Below, piece by piece: positions 3,921 through 54,750 of a stretch of 64,000 bases of DNA. Source of the stretch: Lytechinus pictus (lineage: Eukaryota); NCBI RefSeq assembly GCF_037042905.1, contig NC_087245.1, forward strand, positions 13,952,001 through 14,016,000, written 5' to 3'. The notes under the pieces are model-generated. The model saw only the letters and a program-made list of their open reading frames with translations, was not told the DNA's origin and did no database searches. A program made the position numbers and the translations under genes. Numbering within the stretch: the stretch's first letter is position 1; each line of letters opens with the position of its first letter.

Positions 3921-4579
3921 AATTTTGATTTTTAAGATTTGTAACGTCTTCATGGCTAACTGCATGCAGTCTTTAACAGGTACCTATTCAATCAGTTCAT
4001 TTCTACGCGCGCTTCGCGTTCGTAGTAATTATTTAGTTGCATACACATCTTTTTCAGGATAACAAACATTGCCCAGAATTTTCAAATTTTATGAAAAAAT
4101 ACATAAGATTTCCAAAAAAATTTAGCCTGCGCTTCGCTCTCGCATTATATAAATAAGGATTATGATATTATATATTTATGTTGATTTATAAGAATAAAGC
4201 CAAGAAGTAACTATTGGGACTACCCTTTCAAAGAAACGAAAAATCATCTTCGAGCGGCCGATCGGGGAAAATATAGATGAAAAAAATTCCGCTCCCCCCC
4301 CCCCCCCCTATTGGCGAAGGCTGGATCCGCCCCTGTGCTGCTGATTAAGAATCATATCCATACATAGTAGGTTCCACGAAAGACTAAACAATGCGTTAAG
4401 CTTTACAGATTTTTTCATCGCGACTTCGCGAGTTTCCCCTTTTCTGTCGTAGTGCACTGTTGTATATGAGAAAACATGGAATGTTTGAATATTATTACAT
4501 GACTGTGTTCAAAATCGTGAAATATTGGACAAAATGGCCTCCCGGTGGACAGGGTCGTATACCGGACGGGGGAGAAATT

Positions 4580-22878: not shown

Positions 22879-24925
22879 AAAGTACTCTGTAAATGTCCGT
22901 TTTATGATGTGAATATTAACATTTTCATGCTTGCTCTGTACGCTCGCATTATTTGATTTGCCAAGTAGGCCTACCTATAGTCTTTGTGTATTTCATAAGA
23001 TTCTCAAAATATCCCTTTTCAGGTGGGATTGTCAAAAGCAAAGGCCTATCAGCTAGCGCTGCGCGCTCGCATTTTGATTGGTGACGTATGCATACCTCTA
23101 TATTAATTCTATAACAAACTACTTAAAATCCTCCAGTTTATGACAGTGTATCAAAAAAATCGGCTCGCGATTTGCGCTCGCATTAATTGTTAAAATTTTA
23201 TCAACTCATGAATCCTATTCATGAATACAAAAGTGCGTAAAAACATTCAGTTTTCATGCCTCAACGTTAACAAATTTCACACACCCATTAGGCTTATTAG
23301 ATTAATAAATATGATAAGGGGGATATATAAAAGGGGAATATCGACAAGTTTCATATCGCGCTTAGGAAGAGGAATAGGAAGATAGTCATCATTTTCATAT
23401 GATGACAAAATGTCCTTAGGCCTAGAATGTCCCGGTCCGAGATCAAAATGATAATAAAAATATCAGCTCGCGCTTCGCGTTCGTATCATTTACTAAGTGC
23501 TATCCACAACCACTTCATAATTTCCCTACACAGTGCCTTTAATAGTGCTTAAATTGACCCTTTTCATACCGGAATATCAAATATTTTCAGCTCGCGCTCG
23601 CACTACCGATTTTTATATAAAGCTAAGAAATTACTGTTATAGGACATGGGCGTTTTGCCCCCCCCCCCCATTTTCAACGACCAAGAAAAAAAGAGAAACG
23701 GAAGGGATAAGGGTGAAATATTTTATTTTCTAAACATGCTAAATGTTATGTCAAAATCTATCACAGGTTGTATTTTTATAATAAATTTGTCAATTTTTTT
23801 TCTCGCTCGCTCGCAAAATCTTGTAAATTTTACGCGATACGCCAATCGAGCCCCCTCAAAATTTTGGGCTCATTACGCCAGTGAGTGGGACAACCCCTTC
23901 AAAGAAACCAAAAAAAAAAATCAACTTTGAGTGGCCGGTCGGGGAAAACATGGGTGAAAAAAAAATGCCACCCCCCTATTGGCGGAAGCTGGATACGCCC
24001 CTGGATAACATGGACCTTTTAATATCTTATATTAAATATTTTACAGTCAATATGCACAAATCATTTTTCTCGCGAATGGAGTTTTCATTAGCAGAGTTGT
24101 CATTCGAGACAAAGCCATGCGAACCAATTTCAACTGGAAGAAAAACAATTTTGACATTTTTCCTGTCGATGTCTGCGATCATGGTGCATATTCGTTACTT
24201 TTGTAGTCGTGTGCTTTGTCAATATTCGTTTCAAACGGGACAGACAATTTGAAGAATAACATTTGGTTTCGTTGCTTAGAGACAATACTCAGATCGGAGT
24301 TAGCACAAACCTACCTAATTCCCAAATAGGTCAGTTTGTGTGATCTCAACATGAATAGTTGATCTGCCATGTGAACCACCAGGAATGTCAGAGTAAATAT
24401 GACAATAAATGTCAACGTCCTCATTACCATGATTACCATTATCTTTATCAGTTCTGCTTTGACACAACTTACTGAGCGAATATAATTCAGCAAATTACGC
24501 CAGATGTCAGTCAAGTGAAATCTGACAATGATTTAAAACATGATGAATAAAGAGTTTCATGATTGCTATACATTTAGATCAAAATGGTGGAGCACTTGTT
24601 GAACGGTTGCCCCTCTGAAAGCTCTCTGTGAATAGCTGATTTTTATGTGAATTTTTGAACACTTCAAGCTTTTTTGACTGCACTAAGTGTTTGAACAATA
24701 TGTATGGATTGTGTGGGACAAGTTTTGAGTGTTTTGTAGCTTAAATCAGACAGGATTTGTGCTTGTGAAAATGTTGGATCTACTGCTGCAAAAACTGTAC
24801 AAGAACCATTTTGATCTCACTGCATTCAACTGGTACCTGGGAAGTGCTTTAGTCATGAATAGGAAAAGACCTATACATCTATTGTTAGTGATCTTTTCAG
24901 TGACTTGAAAGCCTTGATCTTAACA

Positions 24926-25090
24926 ATGGCTCTACAGAGGACCTACCTATTTTTGCTCCTAACCATTCTAGTATGTCTGTCCTATCATGAATGGAATGAA
25001 TGGGATCATTCTACTTGCACTGGAACTGTGTATTCTGGCTGCAGTAAACGTACACAAGTTTCATTATTGAAGGGAAAATCAAACATTTGA
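24926..25090 (+). CDS. LINE leader ORF with a signal-peptide-like N-terminus; continues in the -1 frame into 2A/APE
   Basis: acaATGG Kozak context; MALQRTYLFLLLTILVCLS hydrophobic core; overlaps the open -1 frame over 25048-25090. Confidence 0.55.
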   Translation: MALQRTYLFLLLTILVCLSYHEWNEWDHSTCTGTVYSGCSKRTQVSLLKGKSNI

Positions 25091-26667
25091 AATATCTTGG
25101 TGCACACATTCCATATTATAGCAACTCATCAGCAACTTTCCAGATATCTCTTACAATCTATGGAGATGTTGAGCCCAACCCGGGCCCTCAACTAATTACT
25201 AAAGATGGAAAGAAAACCCCTGCCTATGATTTAAAGTATCAGCAAAAGGTTGATCAAGAGCATTATGCCTATATTAAAAAGAGCTTTAATCACTTTGCAT
25301 TTTCAACCATTCCCACATCGCGCCTAAATCCTGATGTTTGGAGAAGGATCCATGAGCTTGGTATCTCACGAAAGCGGAAAACTCATCGTGGATCTAAAGG
25401 TCGTAAGAGAAGGGCTAGGAACTTAAACTTGAGACACAGTGTATTGTCAACGTCACAACATGATGTTTTTGATCACCCTATACCAGTTTTGGTTCAACAA
25501 AGAAAGTATACCCGACATTTTAAGATGAGAAATGGAGACATAAACAATCTTAAACAGATAACAGTACTGATTGACAAAAATCATCATTTTGACTTACCAC
25601 GCTTTTTTCTGTCAAATATACGATCGATCAATAATAAACTTGATGAAATTGACATTGCTGCTGATATAAACAAAGTTGATATTCTTGCTTTGACGGAAAC
25701 ATGGATTGATGAATCAACTTCTATGGATTGTTTGAGTTTACATGGTTATACTTTATTTTCAAAGCCAAGGAGTGGAAGAAAAGGAGGAGGAGTGGCTTTA
25801 TACGTTAAAGATATTTTTAATCCTAGTATTATTCCTGTTTTGGTACCTGATAATGTAGAGGCTTTGTGGGTCTATGTACGACCACGATTATTACCTCGTG
25901 AAATATCACGTATTGTCGTATGTGTATTGTACTTTCCACCACGTAGTCCATATGGGCAGGAATATATTGATCATATCATTTCTACGATTGATGATGTTCT
26001 TACAAAACATCCTGATGTTGGCATTTTTGTGATGGGTGACATGAATGACCTTGATATTGAACCAATTTTGAATAATGATAACTTTCATCAGGTTGTAAAT
26101 ATTCCAACAAGAGATAATAATATACTTGACAAAATTGTAATGAATTGTGATAAGTTTTATTTACCTGTTAGTGTCACATCACCTCTTGGAAAAAGTGACC
26201 ATAACTGTGTACTGCTTAGACCAATTGATAGTTTGGCACGCTCAAGAAAGAAAATAAAAATAAAACTTGCCCGCCCTCTACCAGACAGTGGTTTGCGTTT
26301 ATATGGTCAATGGATCACTCAATATTCTTGGGATGATATGTTACAGCTACAAGATCCTTCTGAAAAATATTCTCGTCTTATTCTAACTACTCTATCAAAG
26401 CTGGATGAATTATTACCAACTAAGAAAATTAAGATAAAGGATAATGACAAACCTTGGATGACACCACAGATAAAAGCAATCATAATTGAAAGAGAAAAAG
26501 CTTTCGAGAAGAATAACAAACCTCTGTGGCGTAGTCTCAGAAATAAAGTAAATAGAATGATAAAAAGTGCAAAGAAACATTATTACAACACACGTGTATC
26601 TCATCTTAAATCAACAAATCCAGCAGACTGGTATAAACAAATCAAGATTATTACAAAAAAAGAATAA
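25087..26667 (+). CDS. LINE polyprotein part 1: 2A-like peptide, basic linker, AP endonuclease
   Basis: GDVEPNPGP; APE motifs SNIRSI, ALTETW, RKGGGVALYV, MGDMN, PTRDNNILD, GKSDH. The true start is probably upstream at 24926. Confidence 0.88.
   Translation: MKYLGAHIPYYSNSSATFQISLTIYGDVEPNPGPQLITKDGKKTPAYDLKYQQKVDQEHYAYIKKSFNHFAFSTIPTSRLNPDVWRRIHELGISRKRKTHRGSKGRKRRARNLNLRHSVLSTSQHDVFDHPIPVLVQQRKYTRHFKMRNGDINNLKQITVLIDKNHHFDLPRFFLSNIRSINNKLDEIDIAADINKVDILALTETWIDESTSMDCLSLHGYTLFSKPRSGRKGGGVALYVKDIFNPSIIPVLVPDNVEALWVYVRPRLLPREISRIVVCVLYFPPRSPYGQEYIDHIISTIDDVLTKHPDVGIFVMGDMNDLDIEPILNNDNFHQVVNIPTRDNNILDKIVMNCDKFYLPVSVTSPLGKSDHNCVLLRPIDSLARSRKKIKIKLARPLPDSGLRLYGQWITQYSWDDMLQLQDPSEKYSRLILTTLSKLDELLPTKKIKIKDNDKPWMTPQIKAIIIEREKAFEKNNKPLWRSLRNKVNRMIKSAKKHYYNTRVSHLKSTNPADWYKQIKIITKKE
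25165..25188 (+). other. 2A/StopGo ribosomal skipping motif D-V-E-P-N-P-G|P
   Basis: Exact match to the D(V/I)ExNPG-P consensus, preceded by ATFQISLTIYG. Confidence 0.85.
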
Positions 26668-28264
26668 CACATCTAACGTTATTGCTGTACCTGGTGTTGA
26701 ACCTAATGATAAAGATCGTCAAGAGAAGACTGCTGATACCATTAATAAGCATTTCATTAATATAGCATCAGATTTGGCGCCGTTGGATAGAAGTTGCTTA
26801 CCAGCTTTCTTACCTTCTCCTTGTGTTTGCCCAGAAGTACAACCTTATCAGGTGTATTCTATGCTAAAGAAAATAAAATGCAGTAAAGCAGGTGTAACAG
26901 ATGACTTACCCCCTCGTGTAATTCGTGAATTTGCATGTGAACTAAGCCATCCTCTTGCCAATATCCTTAATACATCATTTCAACAAGGGTTAGTACCTTG
27001 GCAGTGGAAGAGAAGTCAGGTTGTTCCCATTCCCAAGTCACAACCACCTAATATTAAAAAACTCCGACCTATATCTCTTACATGTCAATTCGCTAAAATT
27101 GCAGAATCATTCATTACAAAATGGTTATTGGAAGATATTTCTAAATATATTGACATTCATCAATACGGAAACAGACAAGGTCTGTCAACTACCCATTATT
27201 TGATAAAATTATTGCATTGTGTATTGGACAACTGTGAAAAATCTAAATCATTATCAACCATAGTTTGCACAGACTATTCCAAAGCCTTCGATAGACTTGA
27301 CCATAGTATTCTGATTCGAAAATTAATTGAATTTAACGTAAGACCTTGCATAATTCAGTGGATTGTTAGTTTTTTAGAAAATCGTTCACAATCTGTTAAA
27401 TATCAGGGCGTGTTGTCTCCGTATATTACAAATCATGCTGGAGTGCCGCAAGGAACGAAATTAGGCCCGATATTGTTTTTGATCATGTTTAATGATTCGT
27501 GTCAGAATGATTCTTTACCGCACTTTAAATATGTTGATGATCTTACTATAGTTGAGAATCGTTCAGTAGAAACTCCTTCTGTATTACAATGTCATCTAAA
27601 TGCACTCGTTACCTGGTCATCTAATAATCACATGAAACTAAATCCGAATAAATGCAATGTAATCAGAGTTACTTTCTCTAAAAATCCACCATTACCTAAT
27701 CTATTGCATATTGGTGACACTTCTCTGCAATATTCAGAAACTGTTAAAATACTTGGTGTTTATATTCAGTCAAACTTAAAATGGGATAAACAAATTTCAG
27801 ATATTATAAAAAGGTGTAACAGAAAATTGTATATGTTCAGACTTGTCAAACAATATAAACTCCCTATGTCAGACCTTGTTCAAATTTACATTGGATATAT
27901 TCGTCCAATTTTGGAGTATTGTGTACCGGTTTTCAATGGAGCACTAACTGCTAAACAGGTTAAGGACTTAGAAAAAATACAAAAAAGAGTTTGCAAAATA
28001 ATTCTTGGCTCAGATTTTATAGATTATGAAAATGCATTAACAAAATGTGGATTAGAATGTCTTGAAAGAAGACGAAAAAGACTGTGTTTGGAGTTTGCTA
28101 AATCTCTTATAAAAAACCCTTACTGTAATAACTGGCTACCAAAAAGGAAAAATGTCTCAATCTCATTAAGGAGTGTTCCAAACTTTGCTCAGTTAAAATG
28201 CAAAACAGCTCGCTTAAGAAAAAGTGCAATACCATATTTCATTGATTTACTAAATTCGAAATAA
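26655..28264 (+). CDS. LINE polyprotein part 2: reverse transcriptase (joined to part 1 across an A7 frameshift)
   Basis: RT motifs LRPISLT, DYSKAFD, GVPQGTKLGP, YVDD, KILGV, YIRPILEY. Removing one A at 26655-26661 fuses it with part 1. Confidence 0.92.
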
Positions 28265-29258
28265 ATTTTTACTTTCATACCCTTGAAATCAACTCAAATT
28301 TTGGCCATTGTTTTAGTCTCCATTTCAATCCAATTGATATTTGAATTTATAATTGTCTAATATTCATCACTTTTTAATATTGTATTTCTTTTTTTTTCGT
28401 TCTATTTTATTATTTTTAATGATTTTTTATGTACACTTGCTCTTTAAAATTTATTTATTATCTATGTACATTGTAAATTGTAATTGTTTGCTTTTATCCA
28501 TGCTTTGTGAACGTTTTATTGTAAACATGTTAATTTCAGCCTTCTGGCTTTGTAACATGTATTGTTTTTATACGAAATAAACCATGATTGAATTGAATTG
28601 AATTGAATTGAAATTTGTCATCTGATCTTTCCCCCATCTTTTCAGGTTGACATTTGTATGAGTGTCAAAGAAGCATTGAATAAGAATTTTGCAACCCGTT
28701 CTGGTAGATTATAAGCAAAACACTTTAGTTTCCCTCCAAAACAGTAAGTTTGAGTAAGTTTCCCTGAAATGCTATAGGTTTTTGACGTAAAGATGCTAAA
28801 ACTCAGAGACACGGTTTTCGCATTCGTTGTTGGCCTGCTTCTTCTGCGTGGCAGGAGTAGCATTTGCATCGCAAACATCAATCCAAACTGTTTCGTTTGT
28901 GCATGTAATTGATACGCATTTACTTTCACCGAGGATCTCCTTGCTTTCACATCTCCGAGTGATCGCATGCTCACATGGGCAAGGGTATGGCATTTTACAT
29001 GTAAGTCAGAAATGCAAGGAATATCAAGCCCTTCTGGCGTGTGTATAATAGCGAAGATTGTGGGATGGGCAAGGTTTATTTACACTTGGTCCAAACACCA
29101 AATATATTTCCTCGCATGCACTTCGAGATATTTTTTTTTTTTATGTAGTGACATATATGCTTCTTTTTCATGACTATATACTTAAAGTGATTGCCCCCTT
29201 TAAAGGTCTGAATATAAATCATTTCCAGTCCGTGCCTACGTTGGCATTAGTGGATTGT

Positions 29259-32200
29259 CCCTTACAGAAAATTTCCAATGGTATACCATTGAGCTACCAT
29301 TGATGTTAGATGGATTACCATTCAACCATCACAAACCACGACACCGTTGAAGCACCAAAAAAACACCATTGAAATACCATTGAAACACCATTGGAACTAA
29401 TTTAATTTTTTTAGACGCTCATTTGCATATCCAATGGTAGCCCAATGGTAGTCCAATGGTAGTCCAATGGTGATCCAATGGTAGGGCACCATTGAGTAAC
29501 CTAATTTGCATACCAGTGGTGGCTGAATGGTGTTTCATTGGTCTACCATACATCCACCACTGATTTACCATTCACAATCCACCATTGACATACCATACAT
29601 GTACCATTTATCTACCATTCATCCACCATTGAACTACCACAAATCCACCATTGATCTACCATTCACTTTTCACCATTGACCTACCATACATCCACCATTG
29701 ACCTACCATTCACAATCCACCATTGACCTACCACACATCCACCATTGATCTACCATTCACTATTCACCATTGACCTACCATACATCCACAATTGACCTAC
29801 CATTCACTATCCACCATTGACCTACCATCCATACATCCACCACTGATCTACCATTCATTATCCACCATTGACCTACCATACATCCACCATTGACCTACCA
29901 TTTACTATCCACCATTGACCTACCATACATTCACCACTGATCTACCATTCATTATCCACCATTGACCTACCATACATCCACCATTGACCTACCATTCAAT
30001 ATCCACCATTGACCTACCATACATCCACCACTGATCTACCATTCATTATCCACCATTGACCTACCATACATCCACCATTGACCTACCATTCAATATCCAC
30101 CATTGACCTACCATACATCCACCACTGATCTACCATTCATTATCCACCATTGATCTACCACACATCCACCATTGATCTACCATTCAATATCCACCATTGA
30201 CCTACCATACATCCACCACTGATCTACCATTCATTATCCACCATTGATCTACCACACATCCACCATTGATCTACCATTCAATATCCACCATTGACCTACC
30301 ATACATTCACCACTGATCTACCATTCATTATCCACCATTGACCTACCATACATCCACCATTGACCTACCATTCAATATCCACCATTGACCTACCATACAT
30401 CCACCACTGATCTACCATTCATTATCCACCATTGACCTACCATACATCCACCATTGACCTACCATTCAATATCCACCATTGACCTACCATACATCCACCA
30501 CTGATCTACCATTCATTATCCACCATTGATCTACCACACATCCACCATTGATCTACCATTCAATATCCACCATTGACCTACCATACATCCACCACTGATC
30601 TACCATTCATTATCCACCATTGATCTACCACACATCCACCATTGATCTACCATTCAATATCCACCATTGACCTACCATACATCCACCATTGATCTACCAT
30701 TCACTATCCACCATTGACCTACCATACATCCACCATAGACCTACCATTCACTATCCACCATTTACCTACCACACATCCACCATTGACATACCATTCACTA
30801 TCCACCATTGACCTACCATACATCCACCAATGACCTACCATTCACTATACACTAGTGACCTACCATACATCCACCACTGATCTACCATTCACTATACACT
30901 ATTGACCTACCATACATCCACCACTGATCCACCATACATCCACCAATGGTGGATAGCGAATGGTACTTATCGTTTAGTGTCTGTCTTCAGCTTACTGTAT
31001 CCAATATCATAACAATCACTGTCCATCATTGACTCACCAAACATCCACCATTGACCTACCATTCACTATACCCCATTGTCCACATGTTGCTACAATAAAC
31101 AGGTTAATTGGAAAATATTAATAAATTTGATATCAAAAGATGTGTAAGACTCTAATCTATTGAGTCAAGAAATCTTGTGGCGCAAAAAAAAATCATCCTC
31201 GAAGATATTGCAGCGAACGTACAGGGAGGAATTCCACACTCCAGCCTTTTTAGGGTGAACCTGTTACAAATTGAAAACCTATTATTACTGCTTTTAAGCA
31301 AGGAGCTTAGGAACCTAATACTATTACTACAACTATACTTCTACTAGCACATCATTTATGAACATGAAAAAACATAATATACATGTACCTGAAAAAAAGT
31401 AGTTCAACAGCTATAAATCTATCTGACCTCATGAGGACCAAGAATTGTACTTACTTGTTAAGATAAGTAGGAGTCTTACTAATGACAAAAGATTACTTTC
31501 TCACATAATCCAAACAAAACTTACAGAGATTGTTCGAAAATGATAAATGGAAAACAACTTAGGAATGATTAATATTGAGCTGGTCATCCCAACACATCTG
31601 TATTTCTGCATAATTACACAAGGTCTATGATTAAAAAAAGATTTATGGTTTTTTTTTCAGTTAATGCGGCATTTTCAGCTATTTTTTTTCTTCTTCTAAT
31701 GGTTTGTTTTTAGTTTGGTGGGCTACACAACTTAATGCATGATAAAATAACAGGAATCACTATTAAGGCTGATTCCCACATTTACCTCCTCCAAAAATGT
31801 CTTCTCGGTTAAAAAGTTTGTAAATTAATCCCATATTACACATTTCATAATTAGTATCTAAAGTATAATATGACTATGATTTAGACATGTATGTATTGCG
31901 CATCTCAATGGCATTGAAAAAAGTATATGGTAGCACAGAGCAATCTAGCTCTTTTAAGCTCTATAAGAGCTCTTGTAAGGTCTGAAAGAGCTCTGGTACA
32001 TAAACGATGAAACACAAAAGAGTCACTGCATAAGTGAATAGAATTGTCATTTTTACGATGGCAATCAACAACAAAAAAGGAGTATTTTTTTACACTGCTC
32101 GATGGTGCAGTTTACCGCACCATATGGGATGACGACGCAAACTTCTTAACTGAAGAGGCAGTTTTTTAGGTTAACATGGGGATCGGCCTTTAGCTGGAAA

Positions 32201-36812: not shown

Positions 36813-38198
36813 GTAAGTAATCAGGAAATTCGTTAATTTTGATATCAATCTCATTTCATATGTGACTCGCTTAATGATTTTCATGATCTAATTCAGACAA
36901 CATGGCGTTGATTCGACAAACTTTGCAAGGCAGTCTTGTTGCTACGGGAACGCTCTCAATGGGGTGACATGTTTCGCGCGAAATTTGTAACAGAGCAGCG
37001 TAGACAGGTAGACATAAGCCTCGTTTACTTCACGAGTTGGCTGACGTGCTTTCAGTTCCTCTGGCTATTATATTACAGACAAGCTTAGAGAGAGGTGAAT
37101 TACCATTAGATTGGATGATCTGCAAATGTTACCCCCATTTTTAAAAAGGGGAATACAAGTCATATTAAGAATTATCGGCTCGTCAGCCGTGGTTTGTAAT
37201 TTATTTGAAACTTTGAAAAGAAAGTTTTCATGGAACATTTCTATAGAAATGCATTTCTTTCTCCTCGTCAACATGGAATTGTTGTGGGTAAATCATTTAT
37301 CATATATTTGTTAGAAGTCATTGACGAATGGATTCGGGTATTAGATGATGGTGGCACATTGATGCCATCTGCATGGATTTTATGAAGACTTTTGATACTG
37401 TGCCACATCTTATATTACTGACCAGGCTAGAGGTATATGGTATTCGAGGACATGTCCATGTGTGGATGAAGGACTTCCTTCTTGGGCGAAGGCAGCGTGC
37501 TTATGTCAAAGGTCAGGAGTCAAACTGGTGTGAAGTCTCAAGTGGTATCCCCCAGGTTAGTGTGCTCGGTCCCTGTCTGTTCTTTGCACCATTAACGATC
37601 TTCCCAATTCAATCAATCTTTTTGAGGATGATATGAAAGCTTATGTCGGCTCAGATTCACCTGGGTCTTGTCAGCAACTTCAAAATACCCCATCACTGCT
37701 AGAAAGCTTGGCTGAGAAAAGACATCTCCGCTCCCTCCCAGACAACTGTACTGTTCTGAAAGTTGGTCATATGCAGTCTGCATTTGAATATCATATGGGT
37801 AAAGAAGATGACTGTGTAATTCTCAGTGAAAGTCAGGTAGAAAGGGACTTGGGAGTACAAGTTGATGCACGACTCGCCTTCAAAAACCATATCTCACAAG
37901 CTGTCTCTAAAGGAAATAAGTTGCTGGGTTTAATGAGGATGTCTTTTGTATGGATGATGACACAGCGAAGCTTATGTTTAATGGTCTAAATATAAGACCG
38001 TTATTAGAATATGGCCATTCGGATTGGTGTGCACTTTTCAGAGTAGGTTATCAGAAACGGCTAGAGAATGTGCAACGAAGAGCAACCCCGAGAGCAACCA
38101 AGCTAATCCTGCGACTTAGAACTTGTCCTATTCAGAGTGACTGCATCATTTGAAACTACCATCTCCTTTTCACAGACGAAGAAGAGGAGATAAACTTA

Positions 38199-42054: not shown

Positions 42055-44465
42055 TCACAAGCTCAGAGGCATAAAGTTAATGTCCGGCGGGCGGCCCGAA
42101 TGGAGTCCCAAGAATAAGCTAGTGAAGTGGCCCAGACGAAGCATTGCGATAGGCCGCCTGTCGGAGATGGGTGACGCCAAGAAATGTAAATGACGACAAG
42201 ATGTACCAGGAGACTTGACAGAAAAGAAGTAAAAAACGTCCATAGTGGAGACAGCATCAAATCCACCGGGAGCACCTGGCGGGGGGCCAGGAGGCTCACT
42301 TGGGGAGATAGTACGCACTCTGTTTCGTCTACCGAGAGCACCTGGCGGGGGGCCAGGAGGATCCTCAACCTGCACTGTATGCGGGACGTCATCAGGGCCA
42401 CTGAGTAGGGAGTAAACTGTGGCCTCAACATCAGCTCTGAAATTCTCTTCGTCAACAATTAATCTGGTAGCTGGAGAATTCTCATCAAGACATCGGCTAA
42501 CATCAGACGAAGGAAGACGGACAAGTGGGTCAGACAGCTGGAGAGGGATGGACAACGCTCTACTGGCAGAATCTGGAGGGCGACCAGGAGGGTCCTCCGA
42601 TTTGGAGGGGAGTGGCAACGCTAACGACGTGGAGTTCAAGCGAGCTGTCTGCGAGCTGGTAAGTAGTGTCTATGGTAGGCTGGCAACTGTCTGGTGAATG
42701 CTCGTTAGCAAGATGAGCAGCACTATTGCAGTCGGCATTGACGTCAATAAGCATGGTGCTGGATACATGTGGGCTAGAAGTAGAGGCTAGTCCAAGCTGC
42801 CTGGGCTGACATGTAGCATCAGGGTCAAGATGTCGGGTGGGCTGGTCCACGGACAAGTTGTCTGCACCAAGTGATTGAGTTGGTGCAGATCTTTCGCTGT
42901 CAAACGAGCAAGATGAGACATTTGCGCGGACGCTGAGCGGCACCGGAGGCGATCTGTCTAACTTAGCGGAGACGAGTGCAACACAGTTTTTACTGTCTGC
43001 GCATGCGGTACGCTCGGGACCATAGGTATACGAGGGTCCATCACCGAGTATGATACAGTGTCTGGCAGGACGGATAGTGATATCGTGACGTGCAATGAAC
43101 GGAATGCCAGCGTGTATTGTTACATATGAGGAGTCTATAACAAAGCCTTCAAAGAGAAAGACCTGGTCTTCTCTTGTGAAAGTGAGAGATGTGGTCCCAA
43201 CAATATTACCAGGAAAGGACGGTTTTTGTGTAACAGAACAAGATGTGTCCAGTATAAGACCTCCAAGATTTCTAACAAGTGAGGAACAGATAAGATTCAC
43301 TGAGGAACCACTAACCAGGAATACTCGGACACACTTTGAGCCATGGAAAACATCAACGTGTGGAGACGTAGCCTTACTAGGTAACTCAGAGAATCTGGCC
43401 ACAGGAGACTGTGGCGGAAGATCACAAACCCTGTTGTGGACATCATCTAACTCTGATGAGCCACTCGCATCACTGCAGAAATCTTCTCCCTGAATCTGTG
43501 GTGACCTGCCTAACTCATGTAGGTCCTCGAAGCAACCAAAAGTACCAAGCAGGGGTTCTAAAGAAACCCTAGCAGTCAAGTTTGGACTTGAACCTAAAGC
43601 ACTACCAAGATCGTAACAATCTTCAACAATGTCATCATCCGATAAGTCACTGTCAGTGTCAAACTCAGAATACTTGAGATCATGATCAAGACTATCATAA
43701 GTACTCGAGCTACGTGATTGGTCTGAACAATAGCGTATCGACATTGCCCGGCGAGCGCATGCAATCATTCTTTGTTCATGTTCCGGCAGAAACGGACAAT
43801 CGCTAATATGATGTTGGAAATCAGAACGACTAGCTGCATGCAAGGCATAAAGGGCAACACCTATGGCTAATTCTATCATCACATTTACAATCAGGTTTAC
43901 TAGAGCCAAAAGTAATTGCGCTACTAGAAGATCTGTGTGAACTAACATGGCTAGTTATGGTAGTGTGCATGGCCCTTATTGTCTGGGGATGAGGTTCGTG
44001 TGGATCCCCGATTGGATTGTCATCAAAATCATCATACAAATCATCATCATTATAACCGATACTTGAATCACTCTCGGTCACATATCCATTCATCTCATTT
44101 CCATTAATTTGAATTGACTCGAACTCTATATCAGATTTATCAGGGCTGCAAGCTCTAGGTCTACTTGAACTGACATGACTAGATATGGTAGCATGCATTA
44201 CCCTTATCTTCTGGGGATGAGGTTGGTATGGAGCCCCCATTAAACTACCATCATCAAAATCATCATCATCAAGACTGACACTCAAATTACTCTCGGTCAC
44301 ATATTCATTTCCATTGATTTGAATTGACTCTAACTCTTGATTATAATAAGGACCATCAATATAAGAATGATCAAAATGTAACTGTTGATTAAAACGCCCT
44401 CTATCTTGGGCCTGCTGGAGACGAGGTTGTGACCTCCGCCTCGGAAAGGGACAGGGAAAAGCCAT
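42055..44465 (-). pseudogene. Frameshifted gag C-terminus/zinc-knuckle plus retropepsin-like ORF
   Basis: CPLC...SRSDFQHHISDCPFLP knuckle split across frames. VRVFLVSGSSVNLI is a degenerate LDSG aspartic-protease motif, followed by IHAGIPFIARHDITI. Confidence 0.7.
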
Positions 44466-44607
44466 CGATATGGGCTATAAGTGGGACTACGGCAGTGCGA
44501 GCAAACAAACGGTTTAAACCACCTATCACGACAACGGATTTGTCGACCGACTGGCTGCAAGAAAACGCATAAAGTCCATCGCAAAATAAATCAATGGTGA
44601 GTACGAA

Positions 44608-50646: not shown

Positions 50647-51874
<1,228 letters not shown>

Positions 51875-54324: not shown

Positions 54325-54750
54325 CTTTGGCTTACCAGATTCCCAGATAAATAAACTACAGCATGTACAAAATGCATGTACCAGATTGTCTGTAATCCCC
54401 CAAACTCACCAATTGATGTATTAACACCCCTACTTTATGATCTGCACTGTCGTCCAATGGGTCAGCGAACTGAATTCAAAATAATGCTGTTCACATTTAA
54501 GAAACTGGATGGCATAGCTCCCACTTATCTCGGTGAACTAACATTGAAATCACCCACCCTGTCCTGCAGATTTCAAAGTTCTCATGACACCATGTTCTCA
54601 GTCACCCACCTTACAAAGATTACACTAGGTGATCGTGCCTTGTTAGTGCTGCATCCAAACTCTGGAATAGTCTCCCTTCCTCAATAAGAAACACATTACC
54701 TGGTACCTTGTTGAAAACTAAATAAAACCTACCCTTTTAAAGAGAGTTTA
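54325..54750 (+). mobile_element. Degenerate L2-like LINE 3' fragment
   Basis: GLPDSQINKLQHVQNAC and TPLLYDLHCRPMGQRTEFKIMLFTFK, similar to the L2 ITPxLxxLHWLPV..RI.FKI motif. Confidence 0.75.

Follow-up and report, generated by a model that had tools for sequence, protein, structure and literature searches.

The window analysed here is the whole of a 64,000-nucleotide stretch from Lytechinus pictus (NCBI RefSeq assembly GCF_037042905.1, contig NC_087245.1, positions 13,952,001 to 14,016,000 of the forward strand), and positions are counted from its first letter. It contains a long interspersed nuclear element (LINE) which, judged by its sequence, is a Rex1-like element of the single open reading frame (ORF) type, coding for an apurinic/apyrimidinic-type endonuclease (APE) and a reverse transcriptase (RT), without ORF1. 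At the start of its ORF we observe a module of three parts, whose anatomy, conservation and frame breaks are described below. 2A (StopGo) sites have been known in LINEs since 2006-2013; what appears to be new is the placement of the 2A between a conserved signal-like leader and a segment resembling an eIF4E-binding site, in many relatives. Literature searches, whose coverage of subscription papers, theses and Repbase notes was incomplete, returned no report of a signal-like leader or of an eIF4E-binding motif in a LINE ORF2.

A stop-free frame on the forward strand (25048-26667) holds the 2A, a basic stretch and the APE domain (Pfam PF03372, E 1.3e-10), the latter at 25615..26205 with the usual endonuclease motifs in place. 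The RT domain (Pfam PF00078, E 7.9e-30; 27029..27763, +, with a YVDD motif) lies in a second frame, 26564-28264, closed by the stop codon TAA at 28262-28264. A previous sequence-only reading of this DNA had described a single endonuclease-RT polyprotein frame; in the window copy, this frame is broken between APE and RT at a run of seven A (26655-26661, +), as seen in alignments and run contigs. Since one letter fewer is present at 26655 in the contigs X1 (10.4/10.4 depth) and X9 (94.7/128.8 depth), only the window copy, or its assembly, has this break, while a break in the leader, described below, is common to X1. The X1 contig (3085 nt, covering 24148-27233) shows four substitutions and a single gap, at 26655. 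The Pfam matches, the missing break in X1 and X9 and the intact relative P0003 all point to one ORF carrying both APE and RT. P0003 is the closest intact protein; it is 55% identical across the APE frame (99% covered) and 66% identical across the RT frame. As the sequence-only reading had also held, there is no ORF1 upstream: the longest forward-strand ATG ORF in 24253-24925 has 45 aa, and among related loci with at least 1.5 kb upstream, a Met-ORF of at least 200 aa within 2.5 kb was found in 3/26. The region 24148..24925 (+) is the probable 5' untranslated region (UTR) and contains 19 ATGs ahead of the start codon at 24926.

The extended 2A-like sequence covers 25090..25188 (+), about 33 codons, and ends with the core GDVEPNPG/P (25162-25188), in which DVEPNPGP (25165-25188) follows the class A pattern D(V/I)ExNPG/P, Pro being among the favoured residues at the x position. 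Skipping is predicted between Gly 25183-25185 and Pro 25186-25188. The motif had previously been placed at 25120-25188 (SNSSATFQISLTIYGDVEPNPGP); its core is indeed there, but the conserved context is longer and starts from 25090. No other NPGP or D[VI]ExNPG match was found in the six frames of the whole window, and the chance expectation of D[VI]ExNPGP, from the six-frame composition, is 4.1e-5. The 2A lies, as claimed, in frame with and upstream of the basic stretch RKRKTHRGSKGRKRRAR (25369-25419) and the APE domain. A comparison with flanking sequence, which had been suggested as a check, agreed with a conserved motif: 27/33 residues of the 2A context are identical in P0003, versus 4/38 in the residues that follow and 139/220 in the APE, and the context is also better conserved than the flanks and the APE in comparisons with four more distant relatives. 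The 2A is located about 88 codons from the ATG 24926 (counted across the frame break), compared with 85 in P0003 and a family median of 78. A conserved Asn 22 residues before the skip site (25123-25131) belongs to an N-x-S/T sequon in 81/139 rows; it may touch the tunnel, or be glycosylated once the leader is released.

The Strongylocentrotus purpuratus Rex1 elements STR-61_SP, STR-197_SP and STR-89_SP (PMC3708506) are like the window element in their extended 2A context, their single ORF, a 2A about 80 aa from the start, a long tract between 2A and APE, and an RT in the same branch. Odon 2013 (PMC3708506) put STR-61 and STR-197 in the Rex1 clade, reported skipped products as the major ones, and described a class with the 2A ~40-80 aa from the ORF start and before the APE, a placement also seen in the window copy. 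Table S1 of Rao 2025 gives STR-61_SP, STR-197, STR-51 and STR-69 as active, and close relatives of the window 2A skip in reticulocyte lysate. A count by eye gives 21/30 identical residues between the window 30-mer and that of STR-61. The two differ in the six residues ahead of GD (ISLTIY in the window, TILMTC in STR-61), and TFQISL was not found in the Rao 2025 supplements. Unlike STR-61 (Asp) and STR-197 (Asn), the window copy has the canonical Glu of the core, present in only 13% of 142 family rows, and is frameshifted.

These affiliations were examined in a quick IQ-TREE of the RT (110/115 rows, no Repbase reference rows). The window RT is sister to P0003 and falls in a 15-row set (Shimodaira-Hasegawa-like approximate likelihood ratio test, SH-aLRT, 99) with P0011, which is STR-61, and the STR-89 family, nested in a 43-row set (SH-aLRT 99) with PF09004-bearing elements. 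P0011, from a cluster named S. purpuratus, carries the STR-61 30-mer together with the RT of STR-61. Thus placed, the element is by sequence a member of the Rex1 clade as used by Odon 2013, and its 2A belongs to the already described subfamily (STR-61, STR-89, STR-197). Because the class has been described for this same subfamily, as the sequence-only reading had recognised for LINEs in general, the 2A alone is not novel. Judged from its sequence and its tested relatives, the window 2A very probably skips.

A hydrophobic leader upstream of the 2A

Upstream of the 2A, an ORF of 54 aa (24926..25090, +), out of frame with it, begins at the ATG 24926 with MALQRTYLFLLLTILVCLS and has a signal-peptide-like start (about residues 8-18). 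Its best 9-residue hydropathy is 3.31 and, judged by hydropathy, its N-terminal part consists of a short n-region and then an h-region in the range of 7-15 hydrophobic residues. In tblastn, residues 1-51 of the intact relatives P0003, P0137 and P0244 align at 24926..25090, and the P0244 alignment changes at 25078 from the leader frame to the 2A frame. The frames are separated by a one-base break in an A-run at 25075-25078, the leader frame stops at 25088-25090, and no Met precedes the motif in the 2A frame. Because the leader is frameshifted, ordinary translation from ATG 24926 ends before the 2A. The sequence-only reading had supposed that the 2A releases the APE-RT from a short upstream product. 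A 2A of a type that tested active does head a single-ORF APE-RT LINE here, but the product is a signal-like leader, and it is frameshifted in this copy.

In order to test the generality of the hydrophobic start, we used a profile built from the 2A context and linker only, with no N-terminal residues. It found 490 clusters (50% identity); the best 150 of the 490 were scored and 8 were dropped as the family context was missing, leaving 142 rows. The length from Met to NPGP is 70-100 residues in 105 of them, shorter in 29 and longer in 8. Hydropathy was taken over a 9-residue window within the first 30 residues, as a proxy for a signal peptide. Among the 105 leaders it reaches at least 2.0 in 99 and at least 2.5 in 84 (200 shuffles at the latter threshold: mean 6.65, maximum 14). 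Only 4 of the 29 short leaders have a hydrophobic start, and these 29 probably reflect late start calls; none of the 8 longer leaders is hydrophobic within its first 30 aa. With the window fixed on the skip site, a hydrophobic segment was found in 96/117 upstream sequences versus 0/116 downstream controls, and in 9/86 ORF2-like proteins without NPGP. A second set of 64 metagenome loci, chosen by 2A context alone, gave a similar picture: the motif is present in 61, a frame of at least 80 aa is open upstream in 39, and 25/39 of these open leaders (15/27 clusters) reach a hydropathy of at least 2.5, versus 0/40 controls.

The start of the segment and the skip site are 66-83 residues apart. Its uncharged stretches are short (median 12 residues), and net charge is +0.39 before versus -0.38 after it (n=80), which fits an N-terminus in the cytosol. 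In an AlphaFold model of the N-terminal module of one relative (predicted template modelling score 0.24), a long helix spans residues 9-31 with high local confidence. About 30-35 residues of a growing chain are hidden in the ribosome exit tunnel, and the segment would therefore have emerged completely by the time of the 2A pause, which is when the signal recognition particle (SRP) binds. Together, these sequence features make targeting to the endoplasmic reticulum (ER) by the leader somewhat probable.

Such leaders are carried by tested elements, STR-61, STR-69 and a near-STR-197 element (P0011, P0190 and P0239, respectively). The same type of leader is also found on distant L2-type RTs (P0112, and P0190 which is STR-69), and the module has therefore either moved between clades or is old. 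In some of the metagenome loci (L003-L064), the same YY/YP-N-S...TFQ 2A context heads 2A-PHD-APE elements with longer (~100-aa) hydrophobic-start leaders; a PHD-like Cys/His pattern follows 15/39 of the open metagenome leaders.

The segment between the skip site and the endonuclease

The tract between 2A and APE is described as motif-free by Odon 2013 (PMC3708506). In the window copy we find in it, on the forward strand, three elements in succession. A degenerate YxxxxL-hydrophobic motif, YIKKSFNHF (25270..25296), has L replaced by F at +5 and carries N at +6, and its distance to the next element is as in relatives. This next element (25321..25365), recognised by family conservation, is an amphipathic helix of the form L-x4-VW-x2-I-x2-LGI, hereafter W box, and is a candidate non-canonical eIF4E-binding motif; it is helical in the model of a relative. 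It is followed at 25369..25419 by the K/R-rich basic stretch, which shows a THRG-x-K/R-G pattern and is a candidate for RNA binding or nuclear import. This stretch lies past the skip site and is conserved in the family, in line with the earlier claim that it stays on the enzyme. W box and basic patch together are 24/32 identical to P0003.

The W-x2-I-x2-LGI box with its basic RG-rich patch could be anchored in 93/156 rows; the other 63, in which the W-box pattern was not found, were left unscored, and one row is mis-anchored. A YxxxxL[LMFIVYW] motif precedes the W box in 56/93 (shuffle mean 3.8, maximum 9), and the stricter Yx[RK]xxL-hydrophobic form in 40/93 (shuffle 0.4). The Tyr is mostly 19-25 residues upstream of the W-box Trp; known non-canonical eIF4E motifs sit ~15-29 residues away from the canonical one (PMC4164784, PMC8558276). 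The Y-motif is also present in 16/18 Rex1-type relatives devoid of NPGP.

A 38-row profile of the segment, searched against the PDB (177,635 sequences), gave four matches at E<=10. Two, whose alignment falls on the motif, are 4E-binding peptides of Drosophila eIF4G (E 0.16 and 0.4); the others are the Tat basic domain, which the basic stretch weakly resembles (E 0.084), and a pseudouridine synthase (E 1.3). Pfam PF21140 matched 1/38 members (E 0.013). A search of the ESM Atlas with the post-2A segment returned nothing above 0.80 by features or above a TM of 0.5.

We then modelled residues 90-134 of the relative P0142 with an insect eIF4E. The model scores 0.83 and the best of three controls 0.00, at a mark reached by 51/78 solved complexes and 2/108 mismatched pairs. 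At least 86% of the contacts recur from run to run, and the partner pLDDT (predicted local distance difference test) is at least 72. Tyr100 and Leu105 contact eIF4E residues 65, 69, 131 and 135, and the W box contacts residues 44-46, 59-60 and 75-76; in this model, we read these contacts as the dorsal face (Tyr/Leu) and the lateral face (W box) of eIF4E. Because similar complexes have been solved, because peptides are a class untested for the tool, and because neither chain is that of the window, the model speaks for likeness and not for binding. We give eIF4E binding about an even chance in relatives with the canonical motif, and hold it to be unlikely in the sub-branch of the window copy.

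State of the copy and other features of the window

Because its leader is out of frame, the window copy is most likely inactive. The 5' end of the element is uncertain, from ~24148, where the X1 contig begins, to ~24588, where the X9 contig match begins. High-depth interspersed repeats lie directly 5' of it (23700-24003 and 24091-24297, the second of which looks like a separate repeat), with a related piece at 4215-4335. At the 3' end, a stem-loop is predicted at 28525..28560 (+; -13.6 kcal/mol, z -3.5 for 28520-28565, a region picked by eye), and the element terminates at 28576..28612 (+) with AATAAA (28576-28581) and an (ATTGA)5 tail (28587-28612). X1 depth drops to 0 in the bin 28659-28800, beyond this tail. 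No target-site duplication was found beside the tail and no second copy of the element within the window.

Raw RNA reads (~6% of two runs) gave 82 and 63 aligned reads, many of them on the upstream repeat. RNA depth is 0.2-1.5 over the 5' half of the ORF, mostly in one orientation, which is too thin for starts, splicing or expression level. A 5' UTR intron is possible: AG/GTCAGT occurs at 24329-24335 and a pyrimidine-rich TTTTCAG 25 nt before the start ATG (24890-24900). The majority of the 19 upstream ATGs would be lost with such an intron; at this low depth, spliced reads were not seen. The first in-frame ATG after the 2A (25525-25527) has a favourable context, with A at -3, and is located just before the APE; re-initiation there could yield an enzyme without leader, 2A and W box. 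Past the LINE tail, a pyrimidine tract followed by CAG (28629-28646) resembles a host 3' splice site, and the element may be intronic.

Elsewhere in the window, 36989-37944 and 54424-54531 are fragments of other decayed LINE RTs. GC-rich overlapping stop-free frames of 464, 214 and 204 aa occupy 42055-44474 (-), with no Pfam match above cut-off; part of this region resembles, by eye, a decayed retrotransposon protease region. A 47-bp minisatellite of 30 copies (29536-30935) and a (CTA)410 array (50648-51873) are also present.

Possible roles of the module

We propose that the ORF starts with a three-part control module made of a signal leader, a StopGo and an eIF4E-like segment, a reading that we consider as evenly balanced. 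In this scheme, the signal-like segment of the ~80-residue leader would be just out of the ribosome at the 2A pause, and SRP would take the ribosome and the LINE RNA to the ER. StopGo would free the leader, which would end up in the lumen or in the membrane, and the APE-RT, starting with Pro, would be made on the cytosolic side; unskipped product would be lost to the ER, which would limit enzyme output. The first part to emerge after the skip would be the segment resembling eIF4E-binding proteins (4E-BPs) and eIF4G, with the basic patch, and it would grip eIF4E on the element's own cap. This capture would end translation, form a ribonucleoprotein (RNP) in cis and do part of the job of the missing ORF1. 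A wider version is doubtful: ORF1-less LINEs of several RT clades would share a swappable N-terminal module in which the signal brings the RNA, during its translation, to the ER or the nuclear envelope, StopGo sets a cytosolic enzyme free, with pull by the translocon tuning the skip, and a bipartite 4E-BP-like motif captures eIF4E on the element's own cap.

Each step has a partial parallel. The SpNLR2A peptides (Roulston et al. 2016, PMC4981915) also combine signal function with StopGo and divide their products between the cytosol and the secretory pathway. In their case the signal is the 26-aa 2A itself, which belongs to host immune genes, unlike the LINE, a retrotransposon in which the hydrophobic segment lies 66-83 residues ahead of the skip site. 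The RNA of the retrotransposon Ty1 (Doh et al. 2014, PMC3945221) is translated with SRP at the ER, where it nucleates an RNP; Ty1 differs as a long terminal repeat element without 2A, whose Gag enters the lumen, and the ER step of the LINE is inferred only. Like the LINE segment, eIF4G and the 4E-BPs (CUP, Thor, 4E-T, Mextli; PMC4164784, PMC8558276) have a YxxxxL-hydrophobic motif with Arg at +2 and a second hydrophobic helix ~20 residues on, and the LINE model touches both dorsal and lateral faces. Unlike the LINE segment, they are host proteins with measured binding; the LINE motif is found in ~60% of scored relatives and is degenerate in the window copy.

Several observations weigh against the proposed module. 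In the window copy, the start codon has to be reached past the 19 upstream ATGs, and the YxxxxL-hydrophobic motif is not canonical; the canonical form is also missing from P0003, P0137, P0111 and P0005, all of which keep the W box. The full extended eIF4E consensus occurs in only 12/93 rows (shuffle 0.1). PDB and Pfam matches of the post-2A segment are individually non-significant, and the eIF4E model used neither chain of the window, on peptides of a class untested for the tool; its pass may stem from likeness to solved complexes. Among 580 2A-bearing reverse-transcribing contigs of a 2026 preprint, 7.4% were highly active and 56% mid-range, and an upstream sequence crossing the translocon can inhibit 2A skipping (PMC2978324). 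Sites following the (-3,-1) rule are not enriched in the leaders (53/80 versus a shuffle mean of 53), by a crude rule with a high background. Finally, Rex1-type relatives devoid of NPGP (among P0022-P0040) have a hydrophobic start right before the Y-motif, in 9/18 at a hydropathy of at least 2.5. A true translocation signal without 2A would send the enzyme into the ER, and the segment may therefore anchor, pause or destabilise. The 2A may have been inserted later, between two parts that are older.

The lack of enriched cleavage sites, and the loss of the Y-motif with retention of the W box in the branch of the window copy, would also suit a module that is a mere brake on ORF2p output. Hydrophobic start and 2A would then cause pausing, drop-off or degradation (orphan-segment quality control) and replace down-regulation by an upstream ORF1, with neither ER targeting nor eIF4E capture, and Y-motif and W box would be packing helices of a small RNA-binding domain. 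Such a role for LINE 2As has been proposed by the Ryan group, and 59% of the tested ORF2p-associated 2A-like peptides lowered protein abundance. A brake leaves unexplained the fixed spacing of 66-83 residues, the N-in charge bias, the preference for Arg at +2 of the Y-motif and the two-site eIF4E model, and we regard it as possible but rather unlikely. The 2A-less relatives with a hydrophobic start would be accounted for by a membrane anchor holding ORF2p, while it is being made, on the cytosolic side of the ER or of the nuclear envelope, the 2A acting where present as a release switch and the 2A-less proteins staying tethered or being cut by a protease. The helix 9-31 modelled in one relative agrees with an anchor; the charge bias indicates N-in, C-out, and the uncharged stretches are short. 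Short stretches of this kind resemble signal h-regions more than anchors, and this explanation seems quite improbable to us.

The last alternative concerns the leader break, which includes, in the -1 phase, the slippery heptamer G_GGA_AAA (25072..25078, +), exactly where the alignments of relatives change frame. A programmed -1 frameshift there would join leader to 2A in a living element, with frameshifting and StopGo in series. The X1 contig, without the second break, has no gap at 25072-25078 and thus retains the leader/2A offset, but X1 may represent this locus from a different individual. Elsewhere in the ORF, heptamers of this kind turn up every 500 codons or so (3 in 1057 codons), and the loss of one base from an A-run both makes the offset and selects for such a site. 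Since no stable stimulating structure lies downstream of 25078 (z -0.35 to -1.33) and all intact close relatives are continuous in one frame, decay is likelier than programmed frameshifting, which is very improbable.

The weight of the finding thus rests with the family-wide module and not with the broken window copy. Its anatomy bears on what the 2As of LINEs separate and on how LINEs without ORF1 assemble an RNP with their own RNA, and the module may show how they capture this RNA. If ER recruitment and eIF4E binding are true, LINEs would govern their own translation through the machinery of secretory targeting together with a mimic of 4E-BPs, and published activity values, obtained from 30-mers without the native leader, may misrepresent the real context. 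If the swappable module is true as well, a transposon would encode a protein that binds eIF4E, and cis preference in the absence of ORF1p would have a molecular basis.

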